A stretch of 59,067 bases of DNA, counting the filler, from Jimgerdemannia flammicorona (Eukaryota): NCBI GenBank assembly GCA_003990765.1. It is 3 parts of 3 records of this genome, joined end to end, with 100 filler letters (N's around TTAATTAATTAA, not from the genome) between each part and the next. Parts side by side here need not be neighbours in the genome. Positions count along the whole stretch, not along the records: positions 1 to 19,626 come from RBNJ01001894.1; 2 more parts are not named here. One strand, written 5' to 3'. The notes below the pieces were generated by a model. It was not told the DNA's origin. It saw only the letters and a program-made list of their open reading frames with translations, and ran no database searches. A program made the position numbers and the translations under genes. Shown one piece after another: positions 1 through 25,497 of the stretch (position 1 is its first letter; each line of letters opens with the position of its first letter).

Positions 1-869
1 GTCTGTAATAGTATAATATAGATTAGTAATTAGAAAATAAAGTGGAAGTCTAAGTAACTATAAAAAAAAATAAAATAAAAAAAAAAATAGATATATATAA
101 ATCTTCTAATTAGACCAATACTTTAAACTTATAAGAATGGAAGAAGATATGCAAGTTTAATTTGCTGTCACATTTCTTTGAGGAAATGCAGCCATCTGTT
201 GATATAATTATATTATAACTACTACTTTCTATTTGAACACAAAAATTCAAAACTGGAAATCTTTCAAGAAGATTCTCTACTAGTAGTTCAAGCCTACTAA
301 TACTACCAAACTAGCCTGAGATAAGCTAGCAAACATCAAGCAACTCAAGTCTATACAAAGTTACAATGTAGAATTTCTGTTAATTATACTTAAACTACTA
401 ATAATAGCTGAATATAAAAAGATAGACTTCTATATCTGAGATCTGAAAGAAAATACACAAGTCAAGGTTAAGCTAGAAGAGCCACAAACTCTCAATAAAG
501 CAATGAGAATTACTTTTTATTACCTTTGATAACTACTTTGAACCAGAATACTACAAGAAGAACTACTTCAAGAACTATCACAAAAACTAATCCAAAGTAG
601 TTAGTCTAGCACTAATAGATCTAGATACAATGAACAAAAAGAATAACAAGCTGACTCTAGAAGAGAAAGACTATCTGAAGAAATCTGGAGCTTATTTCTT
701 CTATCACCAAACAAAACACATTGCAATCAAATGTCCTAAGAAGACCAGTAAACCCTCAAGACCAGTCATTATATTGTCTAAAGATATATCTATCAACCCC
801 AATATCAGTCAATCTAAACTCAAGATCAAGAAGCTTCATTCAAAGGCCCAGGTCCCTCAATATCAATTA

Positions 870-1230
870 GAAGAAGCTATTGGTCTTGACCTACACTCTG
901 TCAAATAAGTCACTATTTTAGCCAAAAGTCAAACTCTGGTACCTACTGAAATTGTAGTTCAATGTCCTAAAAAACATTATACTAGAATTATATCATAATC
1001 AGAACTTAGTGTCAAATATTATTTAGATATTAGTACTGATATTATTAATTTAGACTATCAAGGATAAGTTCAAGTCTTACTTATCAATTAGAAGGATCAA
1101 GACTATATAGTCAAGGAAGGAGACTGAGTTGTACAAATGGTCCTAGAAAAAGCTAGTCAATCCAAGATCACAGAAGTCTAAGAACTATCTAAAACTAAGT
1201 GAGATCAGAAAGATTTTGATAGTACTGATT
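870..1230 (+). pseudogene. dUTPase domain relic between gag and protease
   Basis: Translation AIGLDL..*SELSVK..STDIINLDYQG..EGD*VVQ..K*DQKDFDST fits dUTPase motifs I-V (AGxDL, RSG, GVIDxDYRG, GDRxAQ, RGxxGFGSTG) after C->T/G->A decay. Confidence 0.88.
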
Positions 1231-2030
1231 AAGTAGTAAGTCTTATTAAAAACTGAGCTCAATTAATACTTATTTTCAAAGATCTAGTTAAGGAAAAAAA
1301 AGTTCAAATACTCATAGACAGCAGAGCTGTAGGAAACTTCATCAATCAGAATCTTATTGAAAACCTCAAGATTCTTACCAAGCTTGTATCTAAGAATAAT
1401 AGCATAGTTACTATAGATGATACACTATATTCTATTTAGTCAATTGCTGCCAAACTACTCATTAAGATCCAGAAATATTAAGAATAAGTAGACTTCAAGA
1501 TTGTACTACTAGGAGATCATGATTTGATCTTAGGAAAACTCTGGCTCATGAAACACAATCTGAATATTGATTAGTATGAAAATGAAGTTACTTTACTTTA
1601 AGATAGAGTCAATATTACTATCAAGACAGATAAATCTGTGAACAAGACTCTAGTTGCAATATAGTATAAGAAAGTACTCAAGAAGATAATATATATCTTT
1701 ATTGTAATAGTCCATTCCAAGAAATAAGACAAGAAGCTATTAATCAATGAAAGTATCAAGTTATTACTTAAAGAATTCAAGGATATCTTTTCAGATAAAC
1801 TATCTGGTCTACTACCTATATGAGAAGTTGATTATGAAATTAAACTGACCCCAAAAGCTATACTACTCAAGAAATACATATACCATATATTATCTCTCAA
1901 AATTGAAATAATTAAGAAAAACTAGAAGAACTACTTACACAAAGAGCCATTTAACCAAGCAAGTCCCCCTATGGCTCACTAGTTCTATTTGTTAAGAAAA
2001 AGATAGTACTCTATAAATATATATAGTGTG

Positions 2031-3218
2031 ATGTACATAATTGACAATGGAGTACCGGTGACTGCTAAGATCAGACGACATAATGGTGTGACAATCATAG
2101 ACAGCCTGATCCATTAGGTGATCATCCCAAAAGAAGACAAGATGATCCAAGCCAAAATGAAGACCACATTATTTAAGGAACCATACTCCGCCTCAAGGAT
2201 TGGCACCAAAGAACCAAGTACCCACCACACAATGCCTCCCATTCGCTGAACCAACCAGACCTCCCGCCGCTCTACCCCTTTGCCTGGCCCAAAGACCCTG
2301 ATCTTTGAAGCTATCAAGAAGGCCATCTGGCACCCAGATACTTCTGAACACTTGAACTTCTACACTGAGGACCTTGGACACTTCATCAACTACCGGTATA
2401 TAATGACCCAACAGCTCAAAGACACTACCGAACGAATGACCCTCTGGCATGACTATGAAATTGGACACTGCCTTCGCAATGAGACTTAAGAAGGTGACCA
2501 GGAAGACCTTATTGCCGAAATGTTAACCACTAGCTGGCTAATCAAGAGAGCCCTCCGTGTCCATCAAATCTTCCGCCATATTCCCTGGGCTATAGTACAC
2601 TTGCAAGGAGTAATGGCTGGCAGCCTCTCCCGCCTTTCAACTGAAGATGCTGACTGGATAGAATCTGAAGTAGCTAATGCTATTGGCAGCAACTGCATCG
2701 CCGTAGGAAGCCAACAAACCGAACCTACTCAGCCAGGTTTCCACACCACCCCACTCTGAGACAACTATCAAGGTCACTTAATGAGTCTTATGGAGATATT
2801 TGAAGGACCATCCATTACCATAGAAGCACCCGTTGGAGCTACCCCAATCACCTACCACCTTGTCAGCCACAATTCACACCTCATCATTTGGGAACTGAAT
2901 CAAGAAGAAGCCCAAGAAGTTTCTGTCTTTAAAGAGGAGGCCCAAGAACTCCAAGGCCCTGCCCCTGAAGAAACCCCCTCTGACACTGAAACTGACGAGT
3001 CTTCAGAAGAAGAAGAGGAGCAACAGAGAGTCTACCAGTCCTCTGTCTGCATTCAAGCTGTTCAAGGGTTGGAGAATGTTGTTGAAGATGACTGGCCACT
3101 TTTCTACCCCCTCACCTCTTGGCCGGCGCTTCCCCCCTTTGAGGAGAGATATGATGAAGAAGAAATCACAACCCAGCAAGATTTGCCCACCACGGACGAA
3201 GGGTACTATTTCCTCTAG
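2031..3218 (+). pseudogene. ~395-codon ORF within the LTR (U3), unknown protein with acidic C-terminus
   Basis: ATG at 2031 and ORFs 2280, 2520 and 2781 share one frame, broken only by four stops (TAG, TGA, TAA, TGA), each explicable as C->T. Confidence 0.8.
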
Positions 3219-3239
3219 AGTCCTGCCCATCAGCTGTGA

Positions 3240-3935
3240 GAACCCAGCTTTTGTCAGCAAGTCCGTTTCCAGCATTGCTACCCAGTACCACCGTTTTCAG
3301 CATTTTGTCAGTAGGACCGAATTCAGCATTGCCACCCTCCACAACCATTTCTGGCAACAATCATCATATCATGTCAGCTCATCTGAATCCAGCATTGCTA
3401 CCCAGTACCACCGTTTCCAGCATTTTGTCAGCTCATCCGAATCCAGTGTTGCTATCCCCTATAACCCAATCCATAGTAAACAATAGCCTGCACCTCGCAT
3501 CATACAAACCAATAGCATAAGTTCGCCACAACATAGTATACCTTAGCCTTAGTCGCACCCCCTCCCCCATAGCTAGCAAACTTGTATAAATAACCCATAT
3601 TCTTAGAGTGAATAAACCTCAGCCAGATAGTTTTACAGAGAAAACACACTGCCTCCAAGAGACCAGATAAATTCTGAGAACAAGATAACAACCTAGAGCA
3701 ATAGATTGCTCGGAAGTTTGAGTTAAAGAATTTTCTCTTGCCATGGAAAGAAAATGTTACCCGACCACTACCATTCGAGACCCGAGACCCAGCCAAGGAT
3801 TCAAGACCAGACCGCCATTCGGACTGCCATTCGGACTGCCATTCGAGACCCGAGACTCAGCCAGGGATTCAAGACCAGACTGCCATTCGGACCGCCACCA
3901 TTCGACTGCCATTTGAGATTCAAGACCCGGAAAAC
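3240..3935 (+). repeat. Internal tandem repeats of the family 1 LTR flanking the TATA/polyA module
   Basis: Repeated ccagcattgctacccagtaccaccgttt.cagcattttgtcag (~3270-3430) and gccattcggact / ttcgagacccgagac units (~3770-3930). Confidence 0.75.
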
Positions 3936-6900
3936 CAAGAAACCCAAGGATACCCAGCCAAACAAGACCATAGCCTAAGACCCACCAAGATACTCGAACG
4001 ACCGCCAAAGACCCAAGTTATCCCGCCCTTTCAAGCTAAACAAGATGGACAAGCGAGCCGTTGACCAATTCCCGACCTACTGCGCCACGAACCATTTAAA
4101 GTCAAGACCATCGCTGAGTTTGCCGCCAAGTTAGCCGCTGCCAGGAGATTGAGCCGTACATTGAACCAGACCAAGAGACCCAAGGATACTTAGCTTAGGA
4201 AAGCCAGCACTATCGTCATTTACCTAACAAGTCAAGACAGACAAGTGAGCCGTCAACCTCCGTTTTCCCGCTATTATCGCACGAATCGAACGACCTGTCA
4301 TGTGACCATCGACCCACGAATGTCACCAATGCCTTCAGTTATACATCGCATGCTTCACCAAGTGGCACACATTGAGCCATGCAGTCGAAGTTCATTATAC
4401 ATAACCAAATGCCACAATAGACTATTATATACTCAATAAGCTTATAGTTAAGAACTGATATCCACTACTCTTGATTGATCAAATTTTTGATATTCTCAAG
4501 AATACCAAATACTTCACCAAGTTGGACCTTATGTCAGGATATCACTAAATCTGAATTAAGCTGGAAGATATCCCTAAGACTATATTCATGACTCCCTTTA
4601 GACTTTATGAATTTCTAGTTCTAGTATTTGGTCTTACCAATATACCTACTATATTCCAAACTCTCATGAATAAGATATTCAAGAACTAACTATTCATTTT
4701 CTTATTAGTATATCTTGATGATATTCTAATCTTTTGTACAACTAAAGAAGAGCATCTCAAATATATCTGAATAGTTCTGAAGATATTGTGAAAATATAAG
4801 CTTTATATAAAGCTCAAAAAGTATGAATTCTTCAAAGAATAAGTTAAATATCTTAGTTACATTGTCTCTGTATAAGGAATCTAAGTAGATCTATACAAGA
4901 TAGAGATAATTTAAGAATAGCCTACTCTATCAAATCTCATAGAACTTCAGTTCTTTCTTGGTCTAGTTGGCTACTACTATTACTTTGTCAGAAACTTCTC
5001 TAACATTGCTGAGCCACTAACTAATCTCATAAGAAAGATACCTTACTCTGATCACTATATACCCTAAATCTGGAACCTCTTCTGTCAATAAGTCTTTCAA
5101 GAACTCAAGAACTACCTGACTTATGCTTTAGTTCTAAATAATGCAGATCTAAGTCTAAAATTCACTATTACTACTAATATATCAAATTTTGCTATTAGAA
5201 CAATCCTATTATAAGATGATAGTAAAGGACATTACCCTATTGTCTTCAAGTTCTACAAGTTGATATCAGCTGAATAAAAGTTGGTTACTTATAAGAAGAA
5301 GCTACTAGCAATAGTATATATATACATTAGACTACTAGTGATACTATCTAGAAGATATTGAGTTTGATATCATTACTGACTATCAAGTACTCAAGTATAT
5401 CAATACTCAATCTACTCTATCATATCTATAAGCTAAGTGGAGTCTCAAGCTTCAAACCTTTAATCTAATGATTATCTATAAGCCTGATAAAATACTTATA
5501 GTATCAAATACCTTATCTAGACATCCAGACTTTGTCACAATTATGTAAGTTATCTTGATACCTGAATTTCTAGATCAAATCAGACAAGCTTACAAAGAAA
5601 ACACTGTTACTACTAGAGTTTTCTTGAATGAGCTCAAGGATATATATACTATTGAAGACAATCTGATCTACTATTAAGACCAAGTCTATCTATCTGATAA
5701 TATGAATCTATGCTATAAGATTCTATAAGAACACCATAACTTCTCTCTTGTCAGTTACCTTGGAATTGAAAAAACAGTTAAGAATATTCAACATCACTAC
5801 TATTGACTAAGTATAGTTAAGGAAATCAAGAACTATATTACTAGCTATAATCTCTATCAGCATAATAAGTCTACCAACTAAGTACCAGCTAGTTTGCTAT
5901 AACTACTACTAATTCTAACTAAGAAATTTAAGTAAGTTATAATAGACTTTATAACTTAACTACTATGAACTCAATTTGATGCTGATGCTATTATTATATT
6001 TATTGATCACTTGATCAAAACTATAGTTGCTGAACCAATTACTATCAATACTACTATACCTGTGATTGTAATAATCTTCTTCAAGTCTATCTTCTATCAC
6101 TATAGTCTATTATGAGTAATTATCAGTAATTGTAACCCCAAGTTTACCAGTTACTTTTGGTAAACTCTATTCAAGACTCTGAGAACTCAATTGACTATAT
6201 CTACTGCCTTTCACTCAAAAACTAATGGATAAACTGAGCATATGAACAGAACTCTAGAACAGATACTCAGAAACTATATTTCTTATAAGTAAGATAATTG
6301 GAACCATTACTTAACTTATGTAGAATTTGTATATAACAATGATGTCCAATCATCTACTAGTCTTTCTCTCTTTTGACTATTCTATAGTCAAGATTCCAAG
6401 ACTCTTACAAGTCTAGTCTCTTTTAAGAAAAGCAGCCAAATATAAGCTCTACTACTAAGAATCTTACAGACAAAATAGATGAACTACTCAAAATTACTAC
6501 TATAAACCTCCAGAAGGCTCAATAGTATTAAGCCAAATATACTGATAAGAAATGCTATAATATCACCTATACTATTAGAGATTAAGTTCTACTATCTACT
6601 GAGAACCTTAAGATATAATCTCAAGTCAACTATCTATTAAACAAATTCCAACCCAAATACATTGGACCCTTTGAGATTACTGAACAAGTCTCTGCATTCT
6701 CCTATTATCTCAAGTTACCTGAAACTATAAGAGTATACTCAGTCTTTTATATATCATATCTTAAGACCTAGAATCAGTCACCACCCTACTCTGGTCAAAT
6801 TTTTAAGCTATCTACTCATGTAATTATTAAAGACCATATCAAGTATAAAGTTGAGAAAATCCTTGACAAGTGAATCTGCTATCATTGTCCTGAATACCTG

Positions 6901-7374
6901 ATCAAGTAGATAGACTATCTTAAATATAATGCTACCTGAGAACTACTAGTTAATCTTAAAAACTCTTGAGACCTAGTTTAAGACTTTAAGGCAAAATACA
7001 TTACTCAATCTCTATAGTAACTTCCTTGGATTATTAACCTTATATATCAGAAGTTTACTTTGAGACCCTAGAATCAGTAGAATATCTAGTAAATAAGAAG
7101 TTTACCAAAATGAAGCTACTAGCTGGATTTGAACTTCTCTTAGTTAATTAGTCTAGTTAGGTCCTCTGTCTTATATAAGAATGGTCAGTCTTTATCAATA
7201 TGCTGATATAAGTTTGAGAAATTTTGGTTAAGTATATTTAGTCTTATGTTACCTAATCACTTAATAAAAATGTTAGTTCTTAAGAAGAGAGGGATATAAT
7301 AATTTCATAGTCATATTTTAGTCTTAGTACTTTTTTATATCTTTTTGCTAGTCTTTTCTTATCTTTTTCTACAT

Positions 7375-9222
7375 TGTAGTAGTGATCTCAGAATGATAAC
7401 ATCAGCACAGAAGACAGTAATCCCTTATAAGCCACCAGATTGGAGTACAGGAAGATCATATGGCATGACTCACTCAGGCTATGAGATGAGTAATGATGAC
7501 CAACTATGAGTCATTATGACTACAGTTTAGATATCTTGAGGAATATAAAAGAAAGATCAAGGAACCACAGTAGTAGTAATCAATAAGACTCACCAATTTC
7601 AAAATAGCTCAAAGACTTACCACAAATAAAATACCTGCTGCTTACCAAATCTTAAGGTCAAGGAACTACCAAGGTACCTCAGTTGAGGAAAGGATGTTTC
7701 AAGACATCAGAAGAGCTATGAGGACCTGCACAAGAAGAACTCCTAGTATCAACCTGGGCACTGGTGACCCTTATTACTATATTCTCTACCACCATGAAAT
7801 AGAAACAAGAATCACTATTACTACCAAATGCCTCCAAATATAGTAGGAGTATGAAATAGGAAACCTTTTCTGCTGGGAGTTTCCACAGGCCAGCCCTCAA
7901 GAATTACAAGATACCACTCTCATAGATATATGAGAAACAAGGACAGCTAAGAAGATTCATCAGATCTTCAGACATGTATCATAGTCGATCCCCAACTTAG
8001 AGTATGTTAGAGTCTCAGACTTCAGAGACTTGTCAGCCTACCATATCAATGTACTAGAAGCCAGGGTGGCTACAGAAGCCCAGTCCACTATCACCTTTAA
8101 TAGTGATGAAGTAGAAGACTTCTGGCATCCCATTCTCCAGAACAACCCAGATCAATTCCTACAAGGATTGATCTTAGTATTCCAAGGCCCAAGCATCTAG
8201 ATTAGATCTTTTCAAGACCCCATATTTGTCTCCTATTTCATGGAAGAGAACCTCATAGATTGGAGAGCCTCTGATTTCTCCACCAAACATGATGATGTCA
8301 TCAGCAATGATATCATTCCACACAATATATATAAAATACATGACCTATACAATGACAACAAGATGAACAAAATATTTACAGACCTCATCTTCTTCAAAGA
8401 CATCCTGACCTCTGATGAGGATGAAGCCTCTATGGTCTTGAACATTCTGCTCTAAGTTTCTTGGTTATGCTGAATTATGTCAGCACTCTTTTCCTGTGCA
8501 ACAGCTGTTCCTCCACCAGCATTCTGATGTAACTCAGAATTATTCCAGCACCATTTTTCTGTATCACCAAAATTATATCAGTATTCTGAACCTGTGCAAT
8601 CATCAGTACCAATACTGGAACTTAGCAGTTTTCTATATCCTGGCATTTTATTTTAGTTATTGGAATTTATATTTAGCTTTATATCTTAGCAATCATTGAA
8701 TTATATTTTGTATAAATACCCCTCTTATTTCCTCTGAAATAAAGTCATTTCCTCTTAGTGCAATATATACAATTCCTTACAAGCAATCTAAAGAGATAAC
8801 AAGATAGTTTAAAGATAAGAAGTTTGAGGACTATAAGATCTTGAGAAGGCACTCCAATAAGAACTTACTTATAACAAACTTGAGTTAGTCTAAGAGATAC
8901 ACCTTGAAGAGAATCTGATATATTTGAAGAACTCAGTGACCACTATATGATAACTTGGTACCCATTGGCTGGTAATTCAAGATGAATCCCTCACTTTCAA
9001 GCTGAAAAACAAACAACTACCACAATAACTACCCTGACTACAAGAGTCACCCCTGTAAGAATTCAAGACAAGATGGAAATGTATCTCTCTATATTCTATA
9101 AATATACTACTAAAGAGTCAATCCTGATCTTCATTGAAGACTTTGAACAATTCACCACCATATAAGCCCTTAGTGTGAATACACAATTGGCTCTTCTATC
9201 TGTCAGCCTCACTAGATCAGCT
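7375..9222 (+). mobile_element. Family 2 LTR (7375-8952) + PBS + start of gag, truncated
   Basis: TGT start inside the host 3' LTR; TATAAATA/AATAAA at ~8710-8745; PBS-like acttggtacccattggctgg at 8953; homologous to 9966-11519 and 11753-13279. Confidence 0.85.
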
Positions 9223-9229
9223 TTGGCTG

Positions 9230-11519
9230 TCTTGGAGGTAGGTGGAGATAGTTGTCTGTTTATAACTGTAATAGATATGATACTAGTTGACTTTTATGGC
9301 TCTATCTTAATACTAGTTATTTTCTATATTGAGTATTCAGTGGGATGTCTGGCAGTCTAATATCTCTGTACAAAGACCACTTTCTGATCAAGAATCAGAG
9401 TAGCTAGAGTAGACTGGATTGCTAGAACAATTTCAGAATGAACTCCTTTGAGGAAGGTTGAATCAGCTATTTGTTCCTTGAGAGTATCATCATAGCTAGC
9501 TAAGACAATCTGGTGGTAGATTTGGATATAGAATGAGTTAGGATCTATACTGATTCTCTGACAGATAGTATTGAATTGATCCTTGAGAGCTTGCTTGATC
9601 TCTTCAGTATAGTATGTAGTTCTGAGGAAGTTCTTCATATTGGCAAGTTTGGCTGCACTAGTATCAGCAATAGTAGCCACATTGAACTTATCTCTGGCAG
9701 GTCCTCTGAGGCTGACAGATAGAAGGACTAATTGTATATCTACAGTAAGAGCTTATATAGTAGTGAATTATTCAAAGTCTTCAATGAAGATCAGGATTGA
9801 GTCTTTAGTAATATATCCATAGAATGTGAGGGGATATATTTCTATCTTATCTTGAATTCTTGCAGAAGTGACTCTTGTAGTCAGAGTAGTTATTGTGATA
9901 GTTGTTTATTTTTTAGCTTGAAAGTGAGGAATTCATCTTGAATCACTAGCCAATAGGCACCAAGTTGTCATACATATAATGGTTGCTGAGTCCTTCAAAT
10001 ATGTCAGATTCTCTTCAAGATATATCTCTTAGACTAATCACAAGTTTGTTATAAGCAAGTTCTTATTAGAGTACCTTCTTAAGGTCTTATAGTCCTCAAA
10101 CTTCTTATTTTTAAACTGTCTTATTATCTCTTAGATTGCTTATATAGAACTGAGTATAAGTGAACTTAACTGACTTTATTTTAAAGGAAATAAGAGAGAT
10201 ATTTATATAAAATATAATCTAATGATTGCTAAGTTATAAAGCTAAATATAAATTCTAATAACTAAATAAAATACTAGAATACAGAAAACTATAGTTGTAA
10301 GTACAAATTCAAATATCTGTATAAATGGTTATATAAGTTCAGGATACTAGTAGATTTCAGTAGTATAGAAAAAGAGTACTTGAAGATTCAGGTATTACAG
10401 AAAAAGGATACTGGTAGAATTTAGTTATATAGGAAAAGAATGCTAGAAGATTTCAATATTACCAAGAACTTAGAGCAGAATATTCAAGACCATGGGGGTT
10501 TTATCTTTATCACTGCTAAAGAAAATGAGATCTATGAATGTTTTATCCATTTTACACATTTTGCATATTTCACATATGTCACACCAAATAACATTATCAC
10601 CAGTGACATTATCACATTCAGCAGGGGCTCTCTAATCTATAACATTCTCTTCCATAAAATAAGGAACAAATGTGGGGTCTTGGAGAGGTCTAACCTAGAT
10701 ACTGGGGTCTTGAAATACTGAGATCAATCCTTATATAAATTGATCTGGATTGTTCTGAAGAATGGAATACCAGAACTCTTCTATTTCATCACTATTGAGA
10801 GTGATGGTGGACTGGACTTCTGTGGCCACTATGGCCTCCAGTGCATTGGTATAGTAGGCTGACAGTTCCTTAAAGCCTGAGATTCTAGTATACTCTAAGT
10901 TGGAGATCAATCATAGTGCATGTCTGAAGATCTGATGAATCTTCTTAGCTGTCCTTATTTTATATATATTCATGGGAGTGGCATTTTATATTTCTTGGAG
11001 ACTAGTCTGAGGGAATTCCTGATAGAGAAGGTTTCCTATTTTATACTCCTACTATATCTAGAGGCATTCAGTAGCAATGGTGATCCTTGTTTCTATGTAT
11101 TTCATAGTAGTAGAGAATATAATGATAAGGGTCACTGGTACCCAGGTTGAGACTAGAAGTCTTTCTTATATAGATCCTCATAGCTCTTCTAATATCTTAG
11201 AACATCCTTTCCTAGACTGAGAGACCTTAGTGATTTCTGGACCTTAAGATTTAGTGAGTAGTAGGTATTTATTTGTAGTAAGTCTTTTGAACTATTTCTG
11301 TGAGCTTTGTTTGAGTTGCTGCTACTGTGATTTCTTGATCCTTCTTTTATATTTCTCAAGATATCTGTCTTATAATCACAATAACTCATAGTTAGTTATC
11401 ATTGCTCATCTTATAACCTGGGTGAGTTATGTTATATAATCTTCTATACTCCAATCTAGTGACTTATAAGAAAAGACTATCTCTTGTATTGATGACATTA
11501 TTCTGAGATCACTATTACA
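9230..11519 (-). mobile_element. Family 2 LTR (11519-9966) + PBS + partial gag, inverted relative to 7375-9222
   Basis: Reverse complement matches 7375-9222; PBS ttggtgcctattggc; gag-like ORF 9680-9357. Confidence 0.85.
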
Positions 11520-13890
11520 ATATATAACAGATGTAAGCATACTATATATCTATCATAAGTCATATATATTTGGACTATACTCAAATAATTCAGTATGAGT
11601 AAATGTAAATCTATCAGAACATTTATAGAGATATCTATGAGGTTAAGAAAGTCTGACACTATACCTAAATTCAATAATATCCCCTATTGGTAAGCTATAG
11701 GATTCCTTATATTATCTTATACTTGAGATGAGATCCAATATATCATATATAGTATCATGTAGTAGTTGCTGAGTCCTTTAAATATATATATCAGATTCTC
11801 TTCAAGGTATATCTCTTAGACTAACTATAAGTTTGTTATAAGCAAGTTCTTATTGGAGTGCCTTCTCAAGATCTTAGAGTCCTCAAACTTCTTATTTTTA
11901 AACTGTCTTATTATCTCTTAGATTGCTTGCATAGAATTGAGTATAAGTAAACTTGACTGACTTTATTTCAAAAGAAATAAGAGAGGTATTTATACAAAAT
12001 ATAATTCAATAGTTGCTAAGATATAAAGCTAAATATAAATTCCAATAACTAAATAAAATATTGGAATATAGGAAACTTTAGTTATAAGTACAAATTTAAG
12101 TATTTGTATAAATAGTTGTACAAGTTCAGAATACCAGTAGATTTTGATAGTATAAAAAAAATATTAGTAGAATTCAGTTATACAGAAAAAAAATACTAGA
12201 AGATTTCAGTGGTACCAAGAACTTAGAGCAAAATGTTCAGGATCCTGATGGCTTCATCTTCATTGCTATTATTAAGACTAGAGATCAGGGATAGGATGTC
12301 TTTGAAGGAAATGAGATCAGTGAATATTTCATCTATTTCATGTATTTTACATATATTGCCAATTAGCAGAATGATGTTATTACTGATGATATTATCATGG
12401 ATGATGACATCTCATTTGGTAGTAGTAGGGGCTCTTCAATCTATAACATTCTCTTCAACAAAATAAAGAACAAATGTGGAGTCTTGGAGAGGTCTAACCT
12501 AGATACTGGGGCCTTGGAATACTGATCTGAATTGTCCTGAAGAATGGGGTTCCAGAACTCTTCTACTTCATTACTATTGAGGGTGATAGTGGACTGGGCT
12601 TCTGTGGCCACTATGGCCTCCAGTACATTGGTATAGTGGGCTGACAATTCCTTGAAGTCTGAGATTCTAATATGCTCCAAGTTGGGAATTGACTACAGTA
12701 TATGCCTGAAGACCTGATAAATCTTTTTAGCTGTCCTTATTTCATATACATCCATGAGAGTAGTATCTTATATCTCTTGGGGACTGGCCTGAGAGAATTC
12801 CTGGTAGAGGAAGTTTCCTATTTTATATTTCTGTCACATCCAGAGGCATTTGGTAGTAATAGTGATTCTTGTTTCCATTTTATGATAGTAGAGAATATAG
12901 TAATAAGGGTCACTAGTACTCAGGTTGAGGTTAAGAGTCCTTCTTATGTAGATCCTTATAGCTCTTCTGATGTCTTGAAATATTCTTTCCTGGACTGAGG
13001 GGCCTTAGTGGTTCCTAGACCTTGAGGTTTGATGAGCAGCAGATATTTTGTTTATAGTAAATCTTTTGAACTATTTCTGTAAGCCTTGTTTGAGTTACTG
13101 CTACTGCAGTTTCTTAATTCTTCTTTTATATTTCTTAAGACATCTATCTTATAGTTATCATAACTCATCTTATAGCCTGAGTAAGTTATGCTATATGATC
13201 TTCTTGTACTTTGATCTAGTGGCTTGTAAGTAAAGACTATCTCCTGTGATGATATCATCATTCTGAAATCACTGTTACAATAGTTAACAAAGTGGTACAG
13301 TACTCACTCTGCTATGACAATTTATATTAGGTAGCAATCAAGTATATTTTTAAATATATCAAAGGTATAGTATACTATATACTATATTTAAGTAGTAATA
13401 ATAATAAATTAAGCAGAAGTACTATATATAAAACTATCTTATATATATAATATAGACTAAGTCAGTAATTAGTACTCTATAACTAGATACTTCTTTTAAA
13501 TTAACAAAAATAGAGTTATTTCATAGCAAATATATAAACAATCTTCAGTGGTAACATTATCTATAAGTGAAGTATTAAGCATTGTCTATGGTAATAAAGA
13601 AAGCTATATGACTTTGAGAACTATTAAAGAAGTTGGAATTTTCTCAAGAATAACACTCTATATTACTTTAATAAGATAATCAGTCTATGATTACTATGGC
13701 AAAGAACTCTATACACTATGCTAGAATAAAGTATATTGACATAGAGTATTATTTTATATAGAATATATAAAAAATAGTAATATATATCTAGAATATACTC
13801 TCATAGAATATATGATGGTAGATTTATTAACTAAAGCTCTTCTAAAGACTAAGTTTGATTTATATATATAAGAAATAAAACTTATAAGTA
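11520..13890 (+). mobile_element. Ty1/copia RT-RNaseH relic interrupted by a solo LTR
   Basis: Decayed copia motifs around the insertion (RPDIxYxVNKVxQY, AIKYIFKYIKG) and RNaseH DNQS..IKYIDIEYYFI..MMVDLLTKAL. Confidence 0.75.
11753..13279 (-). mobile_element. Solo LTR, family 2
   Basis: Full-length homology to 9966-11519; 4-bp TSD ATAG (11749-11752/13280-13283); copia frame continues across it. Confidence 0.88.
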
Positions 13891-15839: not shown

Positions 15840-17853
15840 TGTAACATAGTGGATGCGGAATTTAGTAAGTTGGATGGATTTTGGAATTGGACTGGTTTGA
15901 TCTGACTCGTTCTGACTGAGGTTTATTCACTCTAAAATACTGAGTTATTTATACAGATTTGTGCGCTAATTCTGCTACTAAATATGCGGCTAAGTATTAA
16001 GTCTTTTCATGTGAAATTCTCAGATAGAATCTCATGTGAAATCCTATCTGAAATTTGTGAAAGTAACAAGAGTTTCACTGATAATGTTTTAGATGTAGTG
16101 TATGCAGTAAAAGACTATACTAAATCGGAAATTGGATTCAGGTACTATGATCAAATGTCTATTTCCTGTTTCTATTTCATACTATACGTCACATCTTCCC
16201 CCTGAATAGGTTATTTTTGATACAAAAATACCTATTCAAATTCTTACATTGCAATGTTTATATATTTGTTCCCCCTACATGGACATGTTTATGATATATC
16301 CAGGCAATTGTTAAAATGTTATTCAAGGTTCCAAAAGTCTTCAAATAATTAATTCAGGCAGCGGTTTTGGGTGACGGTTCGGGTGACGGGGTCTTCAAAA
16401 ATTGGGTGGTGGCTCGTCTTCAAATTCTTCAGGATATCATAGGTGTTCGTATGTCGGGCAGCATTCTTCAAATAATTAACTCGAACGGTTCATATATGAC
16501 ATCTTCAGCTCTCCGTGGCAGTCCATTTGTATGTCGGACGGTATTCTTCACTCGGGCGGTTTGTATATAACGTCTTCAACTCTCCGTGGTGGTCCATTCG
16601 TATGTCGTCAAAAGTCGGATGACGGCATTCTTCACTTGGGCAGTTCATATACGACGTCTTCAATTCTGTGGTCAAAAGTAGGGCGGCGTTCTTCAAATAA
16701 TTAACTTGGGTGACATCTTTTAATTCTCCTGGGTGGTCCATTCCGTTCGTATGTCGTCAAAAGTCAGACAACAGTTCATATGTTCTATTCTCGATAGCGG
16801 TCCATTTGTATATCGTGGGATGTTCTTCAAAAGTCGAGCGGCAGTGGCGTTTGGCATGGTGGTTCGTTCGGCGTTTTTCGGTGATTAATTCTTGTAATGT
16901 TGTCCCTCGAACTAAGGAGCGACCCAGCTATTAACTCAACGATGTAGTCCTTTGCAGAGCATCTATTGTTCAATACCGACGACAGTTCACAGAAACGAGG
17001 CTGACAACCGGAACAACCAATTAACAGCAGATAGCGCAAACAAACAATGTCTTCAAAATTCGGGTGGCAATGGTTCATACAGCGGTTTTCTTTGTGGTCC
17101 GTACAGCAGTCCGTTCAGCATGGCAGTTTGTTCGGCATTTTTCGGCAATTAATTCTTGTAATGTTGTCCCTCGAACTAAGAAGTGACCTGGCTATTAACT
17201 CAATGATGCGGTCCTTTGCAGAGCGTCTATTGTTCAATACCGACAACAGTTCACAGAAATGAGGCTGACAACCAGAACAAGTAATTAACAGCAGATGGCG
17301 CAGACAAACACCATGTACAACATGATGGTCTGTATGGCGGTCCGGCGGTCTGGCAGTCTGGCGGTCTGGCGGTCTGGTGGTCTGGCAGTCTGGCAGTCTG
17401 GCGGTCTGGCGGTCTGGTGGTCTGACAGTCTGGCGGTTGTTCATTTTTCAGCTTAAAAGTGAGGATTCATCTTGAATCACCAGCCAATGGGCACCAAGTT
17501 GTAATGTAGTGGATGCGGAATTTAGTAAGTTGGATGGATTTTGGAATTAGACTGGTTTGATCTGACTCGTTCTGACTGAGGTTTATTCACTCTAAAATAC
17601 TGAGTTATTTATACAGATTTGTGCGCTAATTCTGCTACTAAATATATGGCTAAGTATTAAGTCTTTTCATGTGAAATTCTCAGGTAGAATCTCATGTGAA
17701 ATCCTATCTGAAATTCGTGAAAGTAACAAGAGTTTCACTGATAATATTTTAGATGCAGTGTCTGCAGTAAAAGACTATACTAAATCAGAAATTGGATTCA
17801 GATACTATGATCAAATGTCTATTTCCTGTTTCTATTTCATAACATACGTCACA
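15840..17853 (-). mobile_element. Young non-autonomous TRIM-like LTR element: 354-bp LTRs (15840-16193, 17500-17853), PBS, PPT, no pol
   Basis: Near-identical direct repeats with TG...CA ends, TSD ATAT, PBS ttggtgcccattggctgg next to 17500, PPT ggggaaga next to 16193. Confidence 0.92.
17335..17438. repeat. 8-bp tandem repeat (tggcggtc)x~13 in the TRIM leader
   Basis: Directly visible; the same element also has a ~200-250 bp internal duplication (about 16850-17050 vs 17115-17310). Confidence 0.9.
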
Positions 17854-18771
17854 ATATGTATTATCATTATAATACTCTTGCAGATTAAAGTTATTTATAA
17901 GGTCTAGCTCAATTTAACTTATCAATTGATCTAGTTTAGCTTATAATATTACTGATCTTGAAGATCTTACTAGCTTATAATATCAGAGGACTAATAATAT
18001 TAATAGCTAATTTTAATATATATATTCTAGTTTTTATGATATTATAGACTATTTTAGCTTATGATATCAATAAAGTTATAGAAATTTAGTCTTATACTAT
18101 TTTTAGTATCTTTAGTCTGTTTTTGAGATATATCTATAGTAATATCAGTAAAGTCATATACTAAACTAATATAGAGACTAGTGTGACTACTATGATATTA
18201 TTAGCTAAAGAGAGCTAAAATTAGTATAAAATCACTATGATCTTACTAATATTCTTGAGTTTTCTAGTATATAACCTTACTAGTAATACAAATCTGATAA
18301 TATTAGCTTAATAATATCATCCTCTGTAATATTAGAGTATAATTTCATTATAAAGTTTAAGTGAAGTACTTAGCTATAATATCTAGAGAAATCTGTTGGA
18401 TATAGAATTTGTACTATTAGAGAATAATCTGCTAAATCTGTCTCATTATGCCAAATCTGCCTAATAAGAAAATTGCTAAAATTATCTATATTATAAAAAC
18501 TAGAGAACTCATACTTTTAAAAAATAACTGAACATTTTGTTACTTTTTGACAAAGTAACTGGAGGCTCAAACCAATCTATATAGTCACTCAACCTTGTAA
18601 TTTGCCTCCATTGAGCCAGCACATTACAATATTATTGTCTAAAGAGCACTCTATTTATACTTAATCTTGCTATAATTTTTAAATAACAAATAATAGAATA
18701 TATATATCAAAAGGACAGACTAGATTTCTTGTCCAATGGCATTGTCTCTGACAATATAATGCTGAAAAGAG

Positions 18772-19272
18772 AGCACCACCATTTTTTTTTCCCTCAATCC
18801 GATGTTTTCTGCCAATGGATTTTTTCAGAAGATAAGGTTTTACCACACCAATCACGTCCTTTTGTCTTTGTGGATCGCCCACCTCTGCACCTCTGGGATC
18901 ATCGCTTTCTTTGTTGATAGAATGTATGGACGCGTTCACGCGTCTTTTTTTCTTTTGCCATATATACATATATACATATTTGAACTTTAACACAATGGAG
19001 CAAACCTCTGACTCCAATAACCATCCTTGGAAGCTTAAATAACACATTTTTTCGCTCACAATATCTGGTCTGGATTTCACAATGGATAAATAAACGATTA
19101 TGGATGGATAAACATTGTTGCTATTGTCGCCATTGTCGTCGTTACTGTCATTGTCAGTATGGATGGATGGCACAGCCATTTGGGAGAGGTGGAGGGGGGA
19201 AGGATGCAATTGGTGCCTCTAAAAAAATCCAGTGGTGGAAAAAATCGGGTTGAGGGGAAAAACGGTGCTGCT
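18772..19272. mobile_element. Possible non-autonomous TIR element (~55-bp imperfect inverted repeats)
   Basis: 18772-18826 reverse complement aaaaaatccattggcagaaaacatcggattgaggg..ggtggtgct resembles 19221-19272 aaaaaatccagtggtggaaaaaatcgggttgagggg..ggtgctgct; no clear TSD. Confidence 0.5.
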
Positions 19273-19626: not shown

Positions 19627-19726
19627 NNNNNNNNNNNNNNNNNNNNNNNNNNNNNNNNNNNNNNNNNNNNTTAATTAATTAANNNNNNNNNNNNNNNNNN
19701 NNNNNNNNNNNNNNNNNNNNNNNNNN
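19627..19726. other. Assembly gap with TTAATTAATTAA spacer
   Basis: N run containing an all-frame stop linker. Confidence 0.97.
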
Positions 19727-20849
19727 TTTTTAAAAAAAAAAAGGGCAAATTAGCTGCCTGGAAGGAAGGACATTTGCCTCTACAAGTAAAGTTACATGAA
19801 ATATGGCATAATCGGATGCATAATCAATGTGAATTTTTCCTACAATTTGTAGGTGCTCTACTGTTATCTGTATAAAATCTCCCAAAACTACTTCTTGAAA
19901 ACGAGCTAGAGCTGGCTCATTATTCTTGAACTCATTTGGCAATAGTAATCTGAGTATAGAAAATCTGATATTTAGCAATCTACTCTTCTTTAGTTATATA
20001 TATCTGACTTCTGATTAAGAAGCTGTCCCAACTTGAAGTATTCTTGGAACTCAGCTCAGTATTTGTAAGAGAGTAACCTCAGTTACTATTACTTTTTCAA
20101 ATTTTAAGATAATTTACATATAAAGGTTGAGCTCTATATGGTGATAAATAAATACTATAGTATAGCTAGAATATATATAAAGAATACTTAGTAAGCTCTG
20201 TGAAAAAGAAATATATATACTTAGTATAGTTACTCTATATAATTATCAATATATACTATCAATTTATATAAATAATCAGATATATCAAATTAAGACATAC
20301 TGTTTCCTGAGAGAACATCTGTTTCTTAAGAGAATACTCATTCTTTGAGAGAACACCTGTCTTTCAAAGAGATATCTGTTCTCTAAAGAAATAAATAGTC
20401 ATACCTTTTCTTATAATTATTCAAATATATAACAACTAGATAATACATAAAGTACTCTAGAGATTTAAGTAAATTAACCTTAGTCTGAAATCTAAGTTAA
20501 AAGCAAAAGACAAGTCTGCCTATAGTATATTCAAGAGATATATCTGCTAAAAGTCACTTGATATAAAGAAAAAGATTATAATACTTAGAGGAAATATCTG
20601 CTCAAGAGTTACTATTAAGATAATTATAAGCTACTTTCTGATTTTACTCTAGTTCTCTTGCTGAAAGCAAGTTAAGTGGATTTTGAGTCATTCTATATTT
20701 AGTCTACTTACCAGATTAAGTCTGAAGATTACTACAAAGTTTTAAAAATAAAACTTTATCTATTTGTAAAAATTCTAAAGATTAGTCTGAGATAAATTAT
20801 TAAACATTTTTTTACTTTTTTGCTAGAAGGTCTAACTTATATACAATAG

Positions 20850-23800
20850 GTCTATATTTTTTAAGATCTTAAATGGTCCAATATAGCAGAGTTTAAGCTT
20901 TTTTTTTGATATTTATATTATTCAGAATTAGGTACTAGATACTAAGTAATATTTGTATAAATAACCTCTCTTCTATTTTTATCAGTATCTACTACTTGTA
21001 TTCTTTATATCTCTATGAGAGCATCTTATACTTACTGGATGTTATCTTATATTATTATATAGCTGATACTATGGTTTGGATAATAACTATAAGAGTCTAT
21101 AGATATTATCTATAGTTCAGATAAAATAGCATCATCTTAGTACTTATACTTAAATTGTTATTATGTAAATTTGGCTAGAGTTATATAGGTTAAAGCTTCT
21201 TATACTTTCTGTTGGTACTCAAGACTATTGAACTGAGTGTAGAACTAGGTCTTGTAGATATTATATCTATCTATATAGTCTCTATTTACTTGAAGATTGT
21301 TGGTATGTTCTGCTCTATAGATGTCTCCTCCAACTTACTTTGCTTGGTTATACTTCTATAGAGCAGGACCTCTCAGGAGTGATTCTATGATTCTGAGCTT
21401 TTTCTAGATATTTCACTTCTTGGCTACTACTTGTACTTTAATTTCTTTAAAGAATTTATTAATATCTTCACTGTCTATACTATAGAATTTCTAAAGATAG
21501 CTCATATTTGGTTTATCTTCACTATCTGAGTCTAGTTCTAGAGTAAAGTCTCTTAATGATTCTTATAGAGATAAGAATAGTAAAGATGTTTGATAAACTA
21601 GTGATACTGATAGAAGACAGTGTCTTGGTAAGAGTATAGAGAGTCTGGCTCTTCTAATTAAAGTTGGGATAGAGGTTCTTAATAGTGGTAGTTCTCTAAT
21701 CGAGTGATAGTGGCTACTAAATACTGAGATACTGAGAGAGCTAGAGCTTTTTGTCTCTTGTAAATAATATCAGAGTATTAAGGATCAAGATACTGAGGTT
21801 CTAGCAATTAGAATAGAACTAATATAGCTAATATTTAGTTCATCTTACTAAGGATCTATATTACTGTCTGAGTAGTTATAGAGGTTGAATTTGTCTCTTG
21901 AGTGGTCTGGTTAACTTCCTCAGTTATCATTTTCCTCTTATTCTAGAAGATAAAAATAGTCGTCTTCTTCTTCTTCAGATTTTTCAAAATATGCTTGATC
22001 TAGTAGAGTAGCTTGAGTGATGATAGTAGTAATGTAGTTACTTCTGTCTGAATATCTTCTATAGATTAGAGTCTGATATTCTTTGGGAAAATCTTCTTAT
22101 TTTAGACCTTTGAATCTGAATGAGATCAGATTGTCCTCTAAGTCATCTTTTTTTCTTTAAGATTAAACCATAATCTGTATTATTTCTTTCTTCTAATTCA
22201 GTTTTCTGACTACTAGTTCTAAACAAAGTGAGAGCTGTCCTAACAATGATATGGACTTCACTTTCTGAAGCAGGCTGTTGTTGGCTAGTTTCTCCTAAAT
22301 TCTCTACTATAGATTACTGCTGAGTTCTTGAGTCAAATTATCAAGTCTTTAGAAAATGTTTTTAGTTGAGTCTCCAAAATGTGATATGTAATTTGTATAT
22401 TTTATTTACTGATATATATGTATGGCTCAATATACTACTGAAAATCTATATACTATCTTTTGTTTATTTCTAACTATATTTCTGACTCAATGTTCACTTT
22501 AATTACTATTCAATTTGTTCATATATATATCTTGAGTCAGTGGTCATATGACTGATTATTTATATATCAAAAGGGAGATCACTTATATTATATGTTATTT
22601 TGGAGTTTCTAGTAAGTTTTTTGAGTCTTGTATCCAATTTCAGCAGTGGTAGGTTGTTTTGGAGTTTTCTAGTAAGTTTTCTAGGTCTTTTCCTTAGTCT
22701 TGTTTTCCAATAGCAGTCTTGACTAACTGACTTGTATTTTGAGTTTTATAATGATTTTCCATAGTCTTGTATTTAATTTTCTATAGTAGTAATATCAAGA
22801 GTAATTTCTTCAGCTCTTAGAGTCTTTTTCCAAAGTTCTTATACTCAACTTTCTTGTCTTTCAGAACTTAATTGCAAACCAATTAACTGAGGTTTATTCA
22901 CTATAAATTAAGGGGTATTTATATAGTTTTCAGACTATATATGAGACTAGATAATTGGTTTTAACTCATAATTACTAAAAGATACTAATTAGTATAATTT
23001 TGGAATTTCAGATAACTAATTAACTAGATAAGGCTAATTTTATATTTATGATAATTTTGGTTAGTTAATATATAGTCACTATTTGTCCTACTAAGTAACT
23101 TACTCAATTTGGCTAATAGAGTCATCCTAATATATCTTAAAATTCAATATAACTAAAATTATATTATCCTCATCCTTCTTCTTATTTTCTTCAGAGAGTC
23201 TGGTCAAATTATTTTCTACATCTCTTAGGAAGTTATTGAGATCATCTTTTAACAAAATAAATAAGTCATTACTATTCTCTAAGTTATTATTGAAATGTCA
23301 CTAAGGAGTATGAAGTTATTCTGCTCTTAAGATCTCTAGTTGATGGAATTGTTATCTATAAAGTAGAGAATATCTGTGGAATTCTGGAGAGAGTAAACTC
23401 TCAGAAGAGGGTCTTGAAATAATACAATTAGACTATAAATGAAATAGTCTGGGTTATTCTCTAGGATAGGATTCCAAAGGTCTTAACTCTCATTACTCTT
23501 GATTATAATAGTAGATTGGACCTCTTCTGCAATCATTTCTTCAAGATAATCTGTATAGTAGCTTATTAGTTCTTGAATATCAGAAACTTTGATATATTCC
23601 AGATTGGGAATAATCCAGAATATATGTCTGAAGATCTGATAAACTCTTTTGGCTAATTACTGTTTATATCTATTTATGTATATGGTATCTGCAATTTTTA
23701 GAAAACTGGCTTATGAAAATTCTTAGTAGAGATGATGTCTCTTTTCATATTTTTACTATATCTAGAGATACTCAGTAGTAGTGGTGATTTTTGTCTCTAT

Positions 23801-24248
23801 TTCTCAGTAGTTGAGAGTATAGTAGTAGAGGTCTTTTATGAAGAGGTTCAGACTAGGGGTCCTTCTTGTATAAATCTTATTGCTCTCTTGATATCAGTAA
23901 ATATCTATTCTTAAACTAATAGATCTGAGTAGCTCTCTAATCTTATTATTTGATAGATAGTAGGTATTTTACTTTGTAGTAAGTCTCTTATTTATGGTTA
24001 ATACTTTGTACTTCTTTTCTTAATGCTTCTCTTATATCTTGAGGGTCTTCTCCTTTAGTCTAGAGGGTAGAGTTATATGATTTAGAGTAGTATACTATTA
24101 GACTCATTATAAGTTATTATAAATTTAGATGGAAATTATCTTCTAATCAAGATAAGTTACAGTTGAGTTACAATTTACAACTGGTGGCTTACAAAGTCTG
24201 AGCAGTCTTCTGAATTCTGATGTCACTAATTTTGAAGATATTGTTACA
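20850..24248 (-). mobile_element. Family 3 gypsy-type element: ~1.87 kb LTR (24248-22380), PBS-like tttggagac, gag-like region joined to integrase C-terminus (internally deleted)
   Basis: TGT...ACA LTR ends, LTR ORF motif RVYQIFRHIFWIIPNL (~23600-23650), YIGPFKI (GPY/F motif) at ~20865-20885. Confidence 0.75.
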
Positions 24249-24252
24249 ATAG

Positions 24253-25497
24253 GTATTAATATCAAATCTATTAACAATTCTTATAACTTTTTTAAGAGAT
24301 CTTAGTTTTTCTAGTTTAATCTTAATATGTATATTCTCTTTTAAGCCTCAGATATAGCAGTCTATCTTTTCATCTTCTACAATATCAGATAGCTCTAAAA
24401 GAATTGATAAGAATTATATATTATACATATATAACTTTATACAAACTTGAGTTGCTTGATATTTACTAGTCTATCTCTAGCTAGTTTGATGGAATTTATA
24501 GACTTGAACTACTTATAGAGAGCCTCCTTAAATACTCTTCAATCTTCAATTATTATTTCTTAATAGATAGTAATAGTTATAATATAATTATACTATTAAA
24601 TGGTTATATTTTCTTAGAGAAGTATAATAGCATATTAGACTTATATATCTATCTTTATTATTATAAGTTTGAAGTATTAGTCTAACTAAAAAGTCTATAT
24701 ATCAGTAGACAATCCTCCTCAGTAGCCATTAAAAGTATTTGACTTAAGTGGTTTAAAATTAATAAATATAATTATAAAGTGAGCTACTATAGCTATACTT
24801 TTAATTTTTGAATATTTTAGTTATACTTATAAGTTTCAAATCTAGTATATTATTGTAGTAATCATTTCTTTTAGATTAATCTATATTTCTGAATTTATAT
24901 CTTCTATTACAAAGAGATCTGAATAGCTGACTAGTTCTCTGATATTAATTTTAGATTTGTATGACTAATTGTAACTAATTTCTGAATTTATATACAATTT
25001 TTTAATAAGATAAGATATAACTTCACTACTACTATTAAGTATAACAGTTTTAGGTTCTTTAAGAGAAAGTAACTAAATTAAAAATATTCAAATAGATTTA
25101 TATATAGTAGCTCAAAAAGATATTATAAATTTAAGTGATCTTGAAGAAATTTTAGAAAAAATATTCCAAGCTTTATTTGAGTAGAAAAAGAGAATATTTA
25201 TATAAGATCTGAAAGAAAGATCCAGAAGAATCTTAGAAATAAATAAAAAAAGTCAAGAATATAATTTTTAGCAAAAATGACTAATAATATTCTATAATAT
25301 TTCAAAAGATTCTATAACTAGCTAAGATAAGATACTTAGTATCAAGAAAAGACAAAAATATTCTAGTAAAGTTTTAGTGATAAGAGAGGATTCTTAAAAT
25401 TTAAAAAATACTAAAATATTATAGAATATTTAAAAAAAAGATAAGAAAAGACTAAAAAAAAGATACAAAAATATACTATACCTAAGAAATTATTATA
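24253..25497 (-). mobile_element. Fragment (5' LTR ~25497-25040 + gag) of the dUTPase-gypsy family, copy 3
   Basis: Reverse complement matches 45590-46830 and 100-530. Confidence 0.8.

Follow-up and report, generated by a model that had tools for sequence, protein, structure and literature searches.

The family-1 LTR and related units in the window

Here we describe a family of open reading frames (ORFs) residing inside long terminal repeats (LTRs) in a stretch of 59,067 nucleotides from Jimgerdemannia flammicorona (assembly GCA_003990765.1; three parts joined end to end), hereafter referred to as the window. The window consists of nested transposable elements, with a base composition that switches between AT-rich blocks (GC 0.2-0.35) and others of GC ~0.48, and we show that four LTR lineages in it (fam1 to fam4) carry a homologous ORF at the same position. 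The fam1 copy is a solo LTR of 2390 bp (positions 2027-4416, + strand) with TGTG...CACA ends, and it is flanked by the target-site duplication ATAG (left copy 2023-2026, right copy 4417-4420). It is inserted in gypsy element A (+ strand; 93-7370, i.e. 93-2026 plus 4417-7370), which carries the marks of repeat-induced point mutation (RIP) and has reverse transcriptase (RT) motifs visible in translation; the RT domain is split at 2026/4417. Gypsy A is broken exactly at the point where a second element, gypsy B (45575-51658, 6084 bp, with 480-bp LTRs at 45575-46052 and 51182-51658), runs on. Specifically, 93-2026 corresponds to 46391-48324 and 4417-7370 to 48321-51273 in gypsy B, giving four duplicated base pairs with gypsy B as the empty site. 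An earlier note on this DNA had called the segment a solo LTR, and its ends, the ATAG duplication and the insertion inside the gypsy A RT domain bear this out.

Gypsy A and B are 80-81% identical at the DNA level; when purines are counted as one letter and pyrimidines as another, the identity rises to 96%, i.e. nearly all differences between them are transitions; as a side observation, the pair (93-7370 and 45575-51658) offers a direct gauge of the RIP-type share of divergence. For gypsy A, gypsy B and the fam3 LTR the RIP indices TpA/ApT and (CpA+TpG)/(ApC+GpT) were 1.14-1.21 and 0.90-1.04, respectively, while the corresponding values for the fam1 unit, which is C>T mutated only mildly, were 0.73 and 1.36.

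A frame of ~395 codons had been proposed for the fam1 LTR. The frame 2031-3218 does exist, but it contains four stops, and the true ORF comprises ~328 codons from the ATG at 2232 (2232-3218, + strand; 328 codons plus the stop at 3216). This start (MPP...) is conserved: the database relatives P0002, P0009 and P0011 and the ORF on the metagenome contig L001 all have MPP or MPA at the aligned position, and L001 has an in-frame stop 21 codons upstream of its ATG. Three nonsense codons interrupt the fam1 ORF (2247 TGA, 2487 TAA and 2757 TGA). The intact 325-amino-acid relative P0002, to which the fam1 ORF is 77% identical, has R, Q and R at these positions, and each stop is therefore one C>T step away from CGA or CAA. 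Moreover, contigs from two soil-metagenome runs have C at 2247, and across the fam1 unit their differences from the window are mostly T>C and A>G (43 and 23 in X1, where C>T and G>A number 16 and 17), which indicates that C>T mutations have accumulated in the window copy. The fam1 ORF copy is thus dead owing to three C>T nonsense mutations. A profile made from the database relatives (A3) matches it at 2232-3161 with an independent E-value (i-E) of 1e-85. Among sequencing runs, shares of 0.05-0.18 were obtained in soil metagenomes and two organisms, with no RNA run among those listed. For the X5 contigs the depth was high at 3547-3786 and low or none elsewhere; their RNA origin is only guessed and we do not take this as evidence of expression.

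The protein motifs quoted in the earlier note for the other LTR families were all present at the positions given there, and the similarity is not due to chance. A tblastn search of the window with the read-through frame (P0001) returned six rows, namely itself, four matches with E 6e-9 to 3e-6 and ~26% identity (7748-8266 on the + strand; 12932-12561, 11048-10698 and 23653-23345 on the - strand) and one chance row (E 9.8). Profile A3, searched against all six frames of the window, gave 12 segments, ten of which had i-E <= 7e-7. The fam2a LTR (7375-8952, +) matched at 7673-8416; its ORF (7631-8455) has ATA in place of ATG and several stops, and a TATA block is located near 8711. The fam2b 5' LTR (9966-11519, -) has a decayed ORF with one frameshift (11214-10617, two frames), and the fam2c solo LTR (11753-13279, -) a decayed ORF at 13019-12229 (two frames). 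In the fam3 5' LTR (22380-24248, -), which is collinear with L001 along that entire contig, the decayed ORF spans 23878-23315 and a TATA/AATAAA block 22925-22887. Every ORF-bearing copy in the window except fam1 is heavily RIP-mutated.

For fam4 the earlier note had listed two LTRs (45490 and 51690). The homologous ORF is real, but it is a single copy split by the 6.1-kb gypsy B, together with an inverted fragment, rather than two LTRs. The left half (45474-45596, +) matches weakly (i-E 0.11) and is cut by gypsy B, while the right half (51643-52004, +) matches in two frames. The EYKIR motif at 45501 and the KIYQII motif at 51682 are 6181 bp apart, and subtracting the 6084 bp of gypsy B leaves the motif spacing of the other families, which argues for one fam4 copy. 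The inverted partial copy (45147-45466, -) lies head-to-head with the left half; the profile matched 45466-45221 (hmmsearch i-E 2.6e-14) with a weak extension to 45147, and blast with purine/pyrimidine recoding aligned 45396-45154 with 51644-51886. The families were also said to have little obvious DNA similarity. This holds for fam1, which can be aligned with the others as protein alone (~26% identity), but not for fam2 and fam3, which share 66-68% DNA identity confined to the ORF core.

As to the nature of these units, several features point to LTRs, as had been proposed. The termini are TGTG...CACA in fam1 and TGTAAC...CACA in fam3, and the fam2 copies start with TGTA and end with GATA or GACA, where GATA is taken as a transition-mutated CA end. 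The fam2c LTR (13279-11753, -) has the 4-bp duplication CTAT on either side. Directly after the fam2a LTR there is a putative primer-binding site (PBS; ACTTGGTACCCATTGGCTGG, 8953-8972, +) followed by a 260-bp leader to 9211, and the pattern ACTTGGT(A/G)CC(C/T)ATTGGCT(G/A)G is present immediately 3' of the fam2a LTR, the fam2b LTR (11519-9966, -) and the 5' LTR of an ORF-less element with short LTRs (see below). A second PBS-like sequence, TTTTGGAGACTCAACTAAAAA (22359-22379, -), adjoins the fam3 LTR end. A soil-metagenome contig matching the fam1 LTR end runs on into TTTTGGGGGCTCAACTGGGAA, which differs from TTTTGGAGACTCAACTAAAAA by G/A transitions only, and a degenerate pattern made from TTTTGGGGGCTCAACTGGGAA had one match in the window, at the fam3 LTR end (0.19 expected with <=3 mismatches). 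In all five settings (fam2a, fam2b, fam3, the short-LTR element and the fam1-like metagenome LTR) the PBS-like sequence is conserved, contains TGG and adjoins the LTR end. A further contig from the same metagenome run has GCAAGGGGCAGA directly ahead of a fam1-like LTR start, and a candidate polypurine tract (PPT), GGGGGAAGA or GGGGCAGA, precedes the LTR start in the short-LTR element and the metagenome contig. Finally, downstream of the fam2b LTR, its PBS-like sequence and the 260-bp leader there is a gag-like ORF of 131 amino acids (9752-9360, -), for which 21 of the 30 nearest clusters among protein-language-model look-alikes belong to the Retrotrans_gag set (score 0.95).

That the units would instead be something other than LTRs, e.g. 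a separate non-autonomous transposon beside retroelement parts, would fit the lack of a complete element and the odd tail-to-tail (fam2a/fam2b) and head-to-head (fam4) arrangements. This is very improbable given the TG..CA ends, the 4-bp duplications, the PBS-like sequence after the end in three families, the PPT-like tract before the start, the gag-like ORF downstream and the internal TATA and poly(A) signals. On these sequence features we regard the LTR reading as secure. With respect to the arrangements themselves, fam2a and fam2b (7375-11519) lie tail-to-tail, each with LTR, PBS and 260-bp leader, and one gag fragment (9212-9706) separates the two; the head-to-head junction of the two fam4 ORF fragments near 45470 is similar; these junctions are inverted-duplication-type rearrangements at retroelement ends.

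Position in U3 and conservation of the encoded protein

Counted from the LTR 5' end, the ORF begins after 200-260 nt in all lineages, and in fam1, fam2a and L001 it stops 180-390 nt upstream of the LTR TATA (stop/TATA positions 3216/3586, 8455/8711 and 1039/1219, respectively). This places the ORF in U3, in agreement with the earlier note. The fam1 TATA at 3586 and AATAAA at 3612 belong to a conserved core block, TATAAATA plus GTGAATAAACCTCAG with the poly(A) signal (3586-3622, +), which is located 3' of the ORF also in fam3, fam2a and L001 and which is shared with the ORF-less short-LTR element. An exact 15-mer of this block occurs four times in the window, and eight times if one mismatch is allowed (1.2 expected). 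Metagenome contigs diverge from fam1 on both sides of 3568-3622. In addition, a TATA-like motif, TATTTAAG (2170-2185, +), lies ~55 nt upstream of the fam1 ORF ATG, and L001, fam3 and all three fam2 copies have the conserved counterpart GAATATAAAAG 55-95 nt 5' of the ATG (alignment A4), which suggests that the ORF may have a promoter of its own.

The ORF-less element (15840-17853, -) is a 2-kb non-autonomous element with 354-bp LTRs (17853-17500 and 16193-15840; 339/353 positions, 96%, identical) and the duplication ATAT. It starts with TGTGACG as do the ORF-bearing families, it has the fam2 PBS-like sequence and the PPT-like GGGGGAAGA directly before its 3' LTR, and its 1.3-kb interior is repeat-rich and non-coding. 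Its TATA/AATAAA block equals that of fam1 at 50 of 58 positions, with only ~240 nt between LTR start and TATA block. An LTR that shares the start and the promoter/poly(A) block but has a short U3 indicates that the ORF is in effect a cassette of ~1.1-1.3 kb within U3.

Searching 1.84 billion representatives with HMMER identified 11 relatives (E <= 1e-3; six at <= 1e-10), all short stand-alone ORFs of 40-342 amino acids; word-indexed searches found one and two relatives, and scans of viral contigs with P0002 and P0008 none. We use the label fungal by inference from the RIP-type signature, a weak Zn2Cys6 match nearby (see below) and relatives of Joint Genome Institute (JGI) or soil-metagenome origin. 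Intact relatives are P0002 (325 amino acids), P0008 (247), P0009 (214) and P0011 (342), to which the 323-codon ORF of L001, a 1345-bp metagenome contig found with P0008 as query, can be added. Intact ORFs of 214-342 codons with a conserved MPP/MPA start are present in at least five lineages. Among 6888 candidates there were no longer fused forms, which is weak evidence. No Pfam family was detected at E <= 1 for P0002, P0008, P0011 or the L001 ORF, and for P0001 only Rep_fac-A_C at E 0.24, below cutoff; a PDB sequence search gave no match at E <= 10, and hhalign revealed no relation between the family profile and a 179-amino-acid ORF at 18682-19218. Judged by these sequence searches, the LTR ORF is a new small orphan protein family.

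For the selection test we counted transversions only, since RIP makes none, in the DNA alignment of L001 with the fam3 LTR. In the ORF core the transversions at codon positions one, two and three were 9/9/27 (p=7e-4, rate 0.071), compared to 13/10/12 (p=0.85, rate 0.124) in the downstream non-coding LTR. Other pairs pointed the same way, with counts of 39/15/36 for fam2a vs L001 (p=0.003), 24/12/30 for fam2c vs L001 (p=0.02), 29/13/26 for fam2b vs L001 (p=0.04) and 31/18/35 for fam2a vs fam3 (p=0.06). Fam1 was left out of these counts because its DNA alignments shifted frame repeatedly, and from the blast with two-letter purine/pyrimidine coding, which is noisy with short words, the long top matches alone were kept. 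The third-position excess in the core and its absence in the non-coding LTR indicate that the core is under purifying selection, which cannot be detected for the C-terminal tail. Together with the intact relatives and the conserved start this upholds the suggestion in the earlier note of selection on the protein.

These data bear on whether it is the DNA that is conserved, as U3 enhancer or other cis elements, with the open frames being incidental. U3 regions do hold conserved regulatory DNA, and the TATA/AATAAA block is conserved as DNA, but we give this explanation very little credence: fam1 matches the other families as protein only, intact frames of 214-342 codons with a common start are present in at least five lineages, and both the third-position transversion excess and a confident fold prediction (see below) speak for a protein. 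Another alternative is that the ORF is a passenger gene, i.e. a host or foreign fragment captured into U3 that does not serve the element, where the conservation would reflect recent descent or unrelated selfish or host selection. In its favour, the short-LTR element with its 96% identical LTR pair and intact-looking PBS and PPT does without the ORF, the protein matches no known retroelement domain, and the C-terminal tail is free to vary. We nevertheless find a passenger gene unlikely. The ORF keeps its place across four LTR lineages, the remaining U3 sequence of which no longer aligns, its core shows a coding-type substitution pattern across lineages, no homologue in any other form was found (no longer proteins; each of the 11 relatives is a short ORF standing alone), and the short-LTR element, being non-autonomous, may depend on ORF-bearing partners.

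Taken together, the ORF is probably an element-encoded accessory protein gene that is borne by the LTR, is under selection and resides in U3 of LTR-retrotransposons of fungal type. Several observations weigh against this. All ORF copies in the window are pseudogenes, and the database relatives are on contigs of ~1 kb, with the flanking context seen for L001 alone. The acidic tail in L001 vs fam3 (5/5/6, p=0.94, rate 0.071) shows no codon-position signal, and pairs within fam2 have too few transversions for the test. Within the window there is no full-length element with two ORF-bearing LTRs around gag-pol. The only element with both LTRs is the ORF-less 2-kb one, and fam2b and fam3 are 5' LTRs followed by truncated or degraded interiors. 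Downstream of fam3, frames read through stops (19727-24300, - strand) gave one Pfam match, SH3_Tf2-1, with E 0.009, below cutoff, and the gag-like ORF 9752-9360 had no Pfam match, which indicates that RIP has degraded these interiors beyond recognition by Pfam. Pfam was also run on 150 (those up to position 34289) of the 299 stop-to-stop ORFs of >=55 amino acids; no relevant family was found, DUF5615 being the only match and sub-threshold. For these reasons, Ty3/gypsy is no more than a candidate assignment for the carrier. Moreover, tRNA and Rfam scans of the window gave no matches, and the PBS and PPT assignments are putative, being made from position and form with no tRNA matched.

Predicted structure, possible function and known systems

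The family shares the motifs LNL..D(L/P)(G/Y)H(F/Y), (W)xxYEIGH, AxKxHQIFRHxP, DNPDQ(F/W)LQ and FxGPxI (alignments A1-A3). Its architecture comprises a short basic N-terminus, a helical core of ~135 residues with YEIGH and HQIFRHxP, a small DNPDQ...FxGPxI segment and a C-terminal tail that is acidic and variable; in fam2-like members the tail is an acidic run ending with ...LNFLL. AlphaFold2 models based on 12-row alignments had a mean predicted local distance difference test (pLDDT) score of 64.8 for P0002 and 74.5 for P0009; in the latter, the predicted helical core (residues ~20-155) reached pLDDT 80-95. The core is followed by a poorly modelled short segment and, in the longer proteins, by an acidic tail predicted to be disordered. 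Foldseek found no match at E <= 1e-3, neither for the full model vs PDB nor for the core model vs PDB and BFVD. With VIA-align the results for the full model were dominated by a single low-confidence helix, and for the core the best Z among 48,161 chains was 3.7, with none reaching Z 5. Eight of the 50 listed rows were ParB/KorB/SopB/VirB/Spo0J DNA-binding domains (3vwb, 3mkw, 3mky, 1zx4, 8qa8, 1vz0, 1r71 and 6s6h) covering model residues 72-157 with Z 2.5-3.6, which is at noise level. Among language-model look-alikes of P0009 the best score was 0.82, which is uninformative.

With respect to expression, the genomic RNA would include U3 of the 3' LTR, from which reverse transcription would copy the gene into both LTRs in each cycle, such that the gene would travel with the element. 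The mRNA would probably be 3'-coterminal with the genomic RNA and end at the LTR poly(A) signal, given that AATAAA lies downstream of the ORF stop. It may start from the TATA-like motif conserved 55-95 nt 5' of the ATG, in which case each LTR would be a self-contained expression unit; alternatively, the mRNA might originate through splicing.

Our best guess for the function, held tentatively, is that the protein acts in the nucleus on the LTR promoter, similar to a transactivator. The helical and possibly helix-turn-helix (HTH)-like core, the basic N-terminus, the acidic tail and the location of the gene next to the promoter are consistent with such a regulator, but the ParB/KorB-type HTH likeness on which the guess in part rests is a lead at noise level and not a finding, and this counts against it. 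A more specific version, in which each LTR is a self-contained gene (own TATA-like promoter, ORF and the poly(A) signal of the element) and its product would be a DNA-binding regulator that activates or shields the downstream LTR promoter, is doubtful as a whole. The earlier note had suggested anti-silencing, transactivation or targeting as roles; the sequence and fold searches gave no match to Sag, Nef or any other known protein that would favour one of them. Beside the passenger gene, the main rival is that the protein would be an anti-defence factor that counters RIP, quelling/RNA interference or heterochromatin instead of activating transcription. The elements sit in a region of heavy RIP-type mutation, accessory genes of retroelements are often counter-defences, and an arms race could explain why the tail varies beside a conserved core. 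Such a role appears improbable since the PDB sequence and fold searches revealed no similarity to known suppressors and since the ORF copies in the window, fam1 excepted, are themselves heavily RIP-mutated.

A few complex retroviruses are characterised by accessory genes located inside their LTRs. In mouse mammary tumour virus (MMTV) the complete sag ORF lies inside U3 of the LTR and encodes a type II membrane glycoprotein, and foamy-virus Tas/Bel1 and Bet as well as Nef of human and simian immunodeficiency viruses (HIV/SIV) are products of 3' accessory genes overlapping U3. Foamy-virus Tas binds DNA, transactivates the LTR of its own virus and has an acidic activation domain. The LTR ORF resembles sag in that the whole frame is in U3 upstream of the LTR promoter, and hence present in both LTRs and at the 3' end of the genomic RNA. 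It differs from sag in having no Pfam or fold similarity, in belonging to a retrotransposon in a fungus-type genome rather than to an infectious retrovirus, and in encoding a protein predicted to be soluble, helical and acidic-tailed instead of a membrane glycoprotein. An LTR transactivator with an acidic domain, as exemplified by Tas, would be our working model for the LTR ORF protein. The Tas, Bet and Nef ORFs begin upstream of the 3' LTR, whereas here the entire ORF, perhaps with its own TATA-like motif, is within the LTR, and no homology between the LTR ORF family and Sag, Nef or Tas/Bet was detected in Pfam, PDB sequence or Foldseek (PDB/BFVD) searches.

Among Ty3/gypsy-type elements, the cited passages describe rice Retrosat2/RIRE ORF0 as an extra internal ORF upstream of gag, fast-evolving and without homologues (PMC3485330), and for the 3.2-kb Retrosat2 LTRs the same passages refer to cis elements and not to ORF0 (PMC3485330). 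The Botrytis Boty-like element is described to have an internal antisense gene, brtn (cited in PMC8365987), and CERV of Caenorhabditis elegans Cer1 is presented as an accessory ORF of the internal region (PMC10309623). As far as these accounts go, ORF0, brtn and CERV are, like the LTR ORF, accessory ORFs restricted to particular lineages and with regulatory or unknown functions, and ORF0 resembles the LTR ORF also in its fast evolution and lack of homologues. The three are, however, internal (upstream of gag, antisense or spliced) while the LTR ORF is inside the LTR. According to the part of the Podospora crapaud report concerned, the LTR subfamilies differ mainly in their 5' (U3) half with the rest conserved, in a genome that is RIP-active (PMC10787394). 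The LTRs described there are 339-443 bp with no ORF mentioned in that part (PMC10787394), whereas U3 is 1.3-1.6 kb and coding here. Full-text literature searches, with subscription journals outside their coverage, gave no report of an LTR-borne ORF in fungi.

If a selected protein is indeed borne by the LTRs, these, solo copies included, could be coding units hidden from gene annotation by repeat masking. Such a protein would also constitute a new orphan family with a testable predicted fold, would give access to the ways in which retrotransposons control their own activity or withstand RIP-type defence, and would account for the unusually long (1.5-2.4 kb) fungal LTRs. In the more specific and doubtful version, with each LTR as a self-contained gene for a DNA-binding regulator, scattered solo LTRs would stay protein-expressing and could act in trans on ORF-less relatives, e.g. 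the 2-kb short-LTR element, and the system would be the equivalent of foamy-virus Tas or MMTV Sag in a fungal retrotransposon.

Other features of the window

Two intact ORFs of 636 and 635 amino acids (28706-30613 and 35272-37176, +) are located in a 2.8-kb direct repeat, ~90% identical and 6.5 kb apart. By eye they have a CCHC-like knuckle, CSICALKSHFRKYCP, and a retropepsin-like IDTGADT motif, and their C-termini match Zn2Cys6 weakly (E 0.029 and 0.35, below cutoff); these motifs would be compatible with a gene that derives from gag-protease and has become fused to a fungal zinc cluster. The 636-residue ORF (P0003) was considered as a member of the LTR ORF family and rejected, hhalign with the family profile giving no relation.

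At 39000-45000 (~6 kb) and 53000-54000, GC is ~0.48 and the strand skew extreme (GC skew -0.33 to -0.54), and 43751-44782 resembles 52969-53996 (84% in purine/pyrimidine coding). The filler joins between the parts, at 19627-19726 and 39349-39448, contain four masked runs of 44 N in near-identical stretches of 100-130 bp with direct and inverted matches. Finally, there are two tandem arrays, one at 33420-34320 with units of ~60-105 bp rich in GACGAC/AGAACAG and one at the window end (57640-59050) with units of 158-164 bp.

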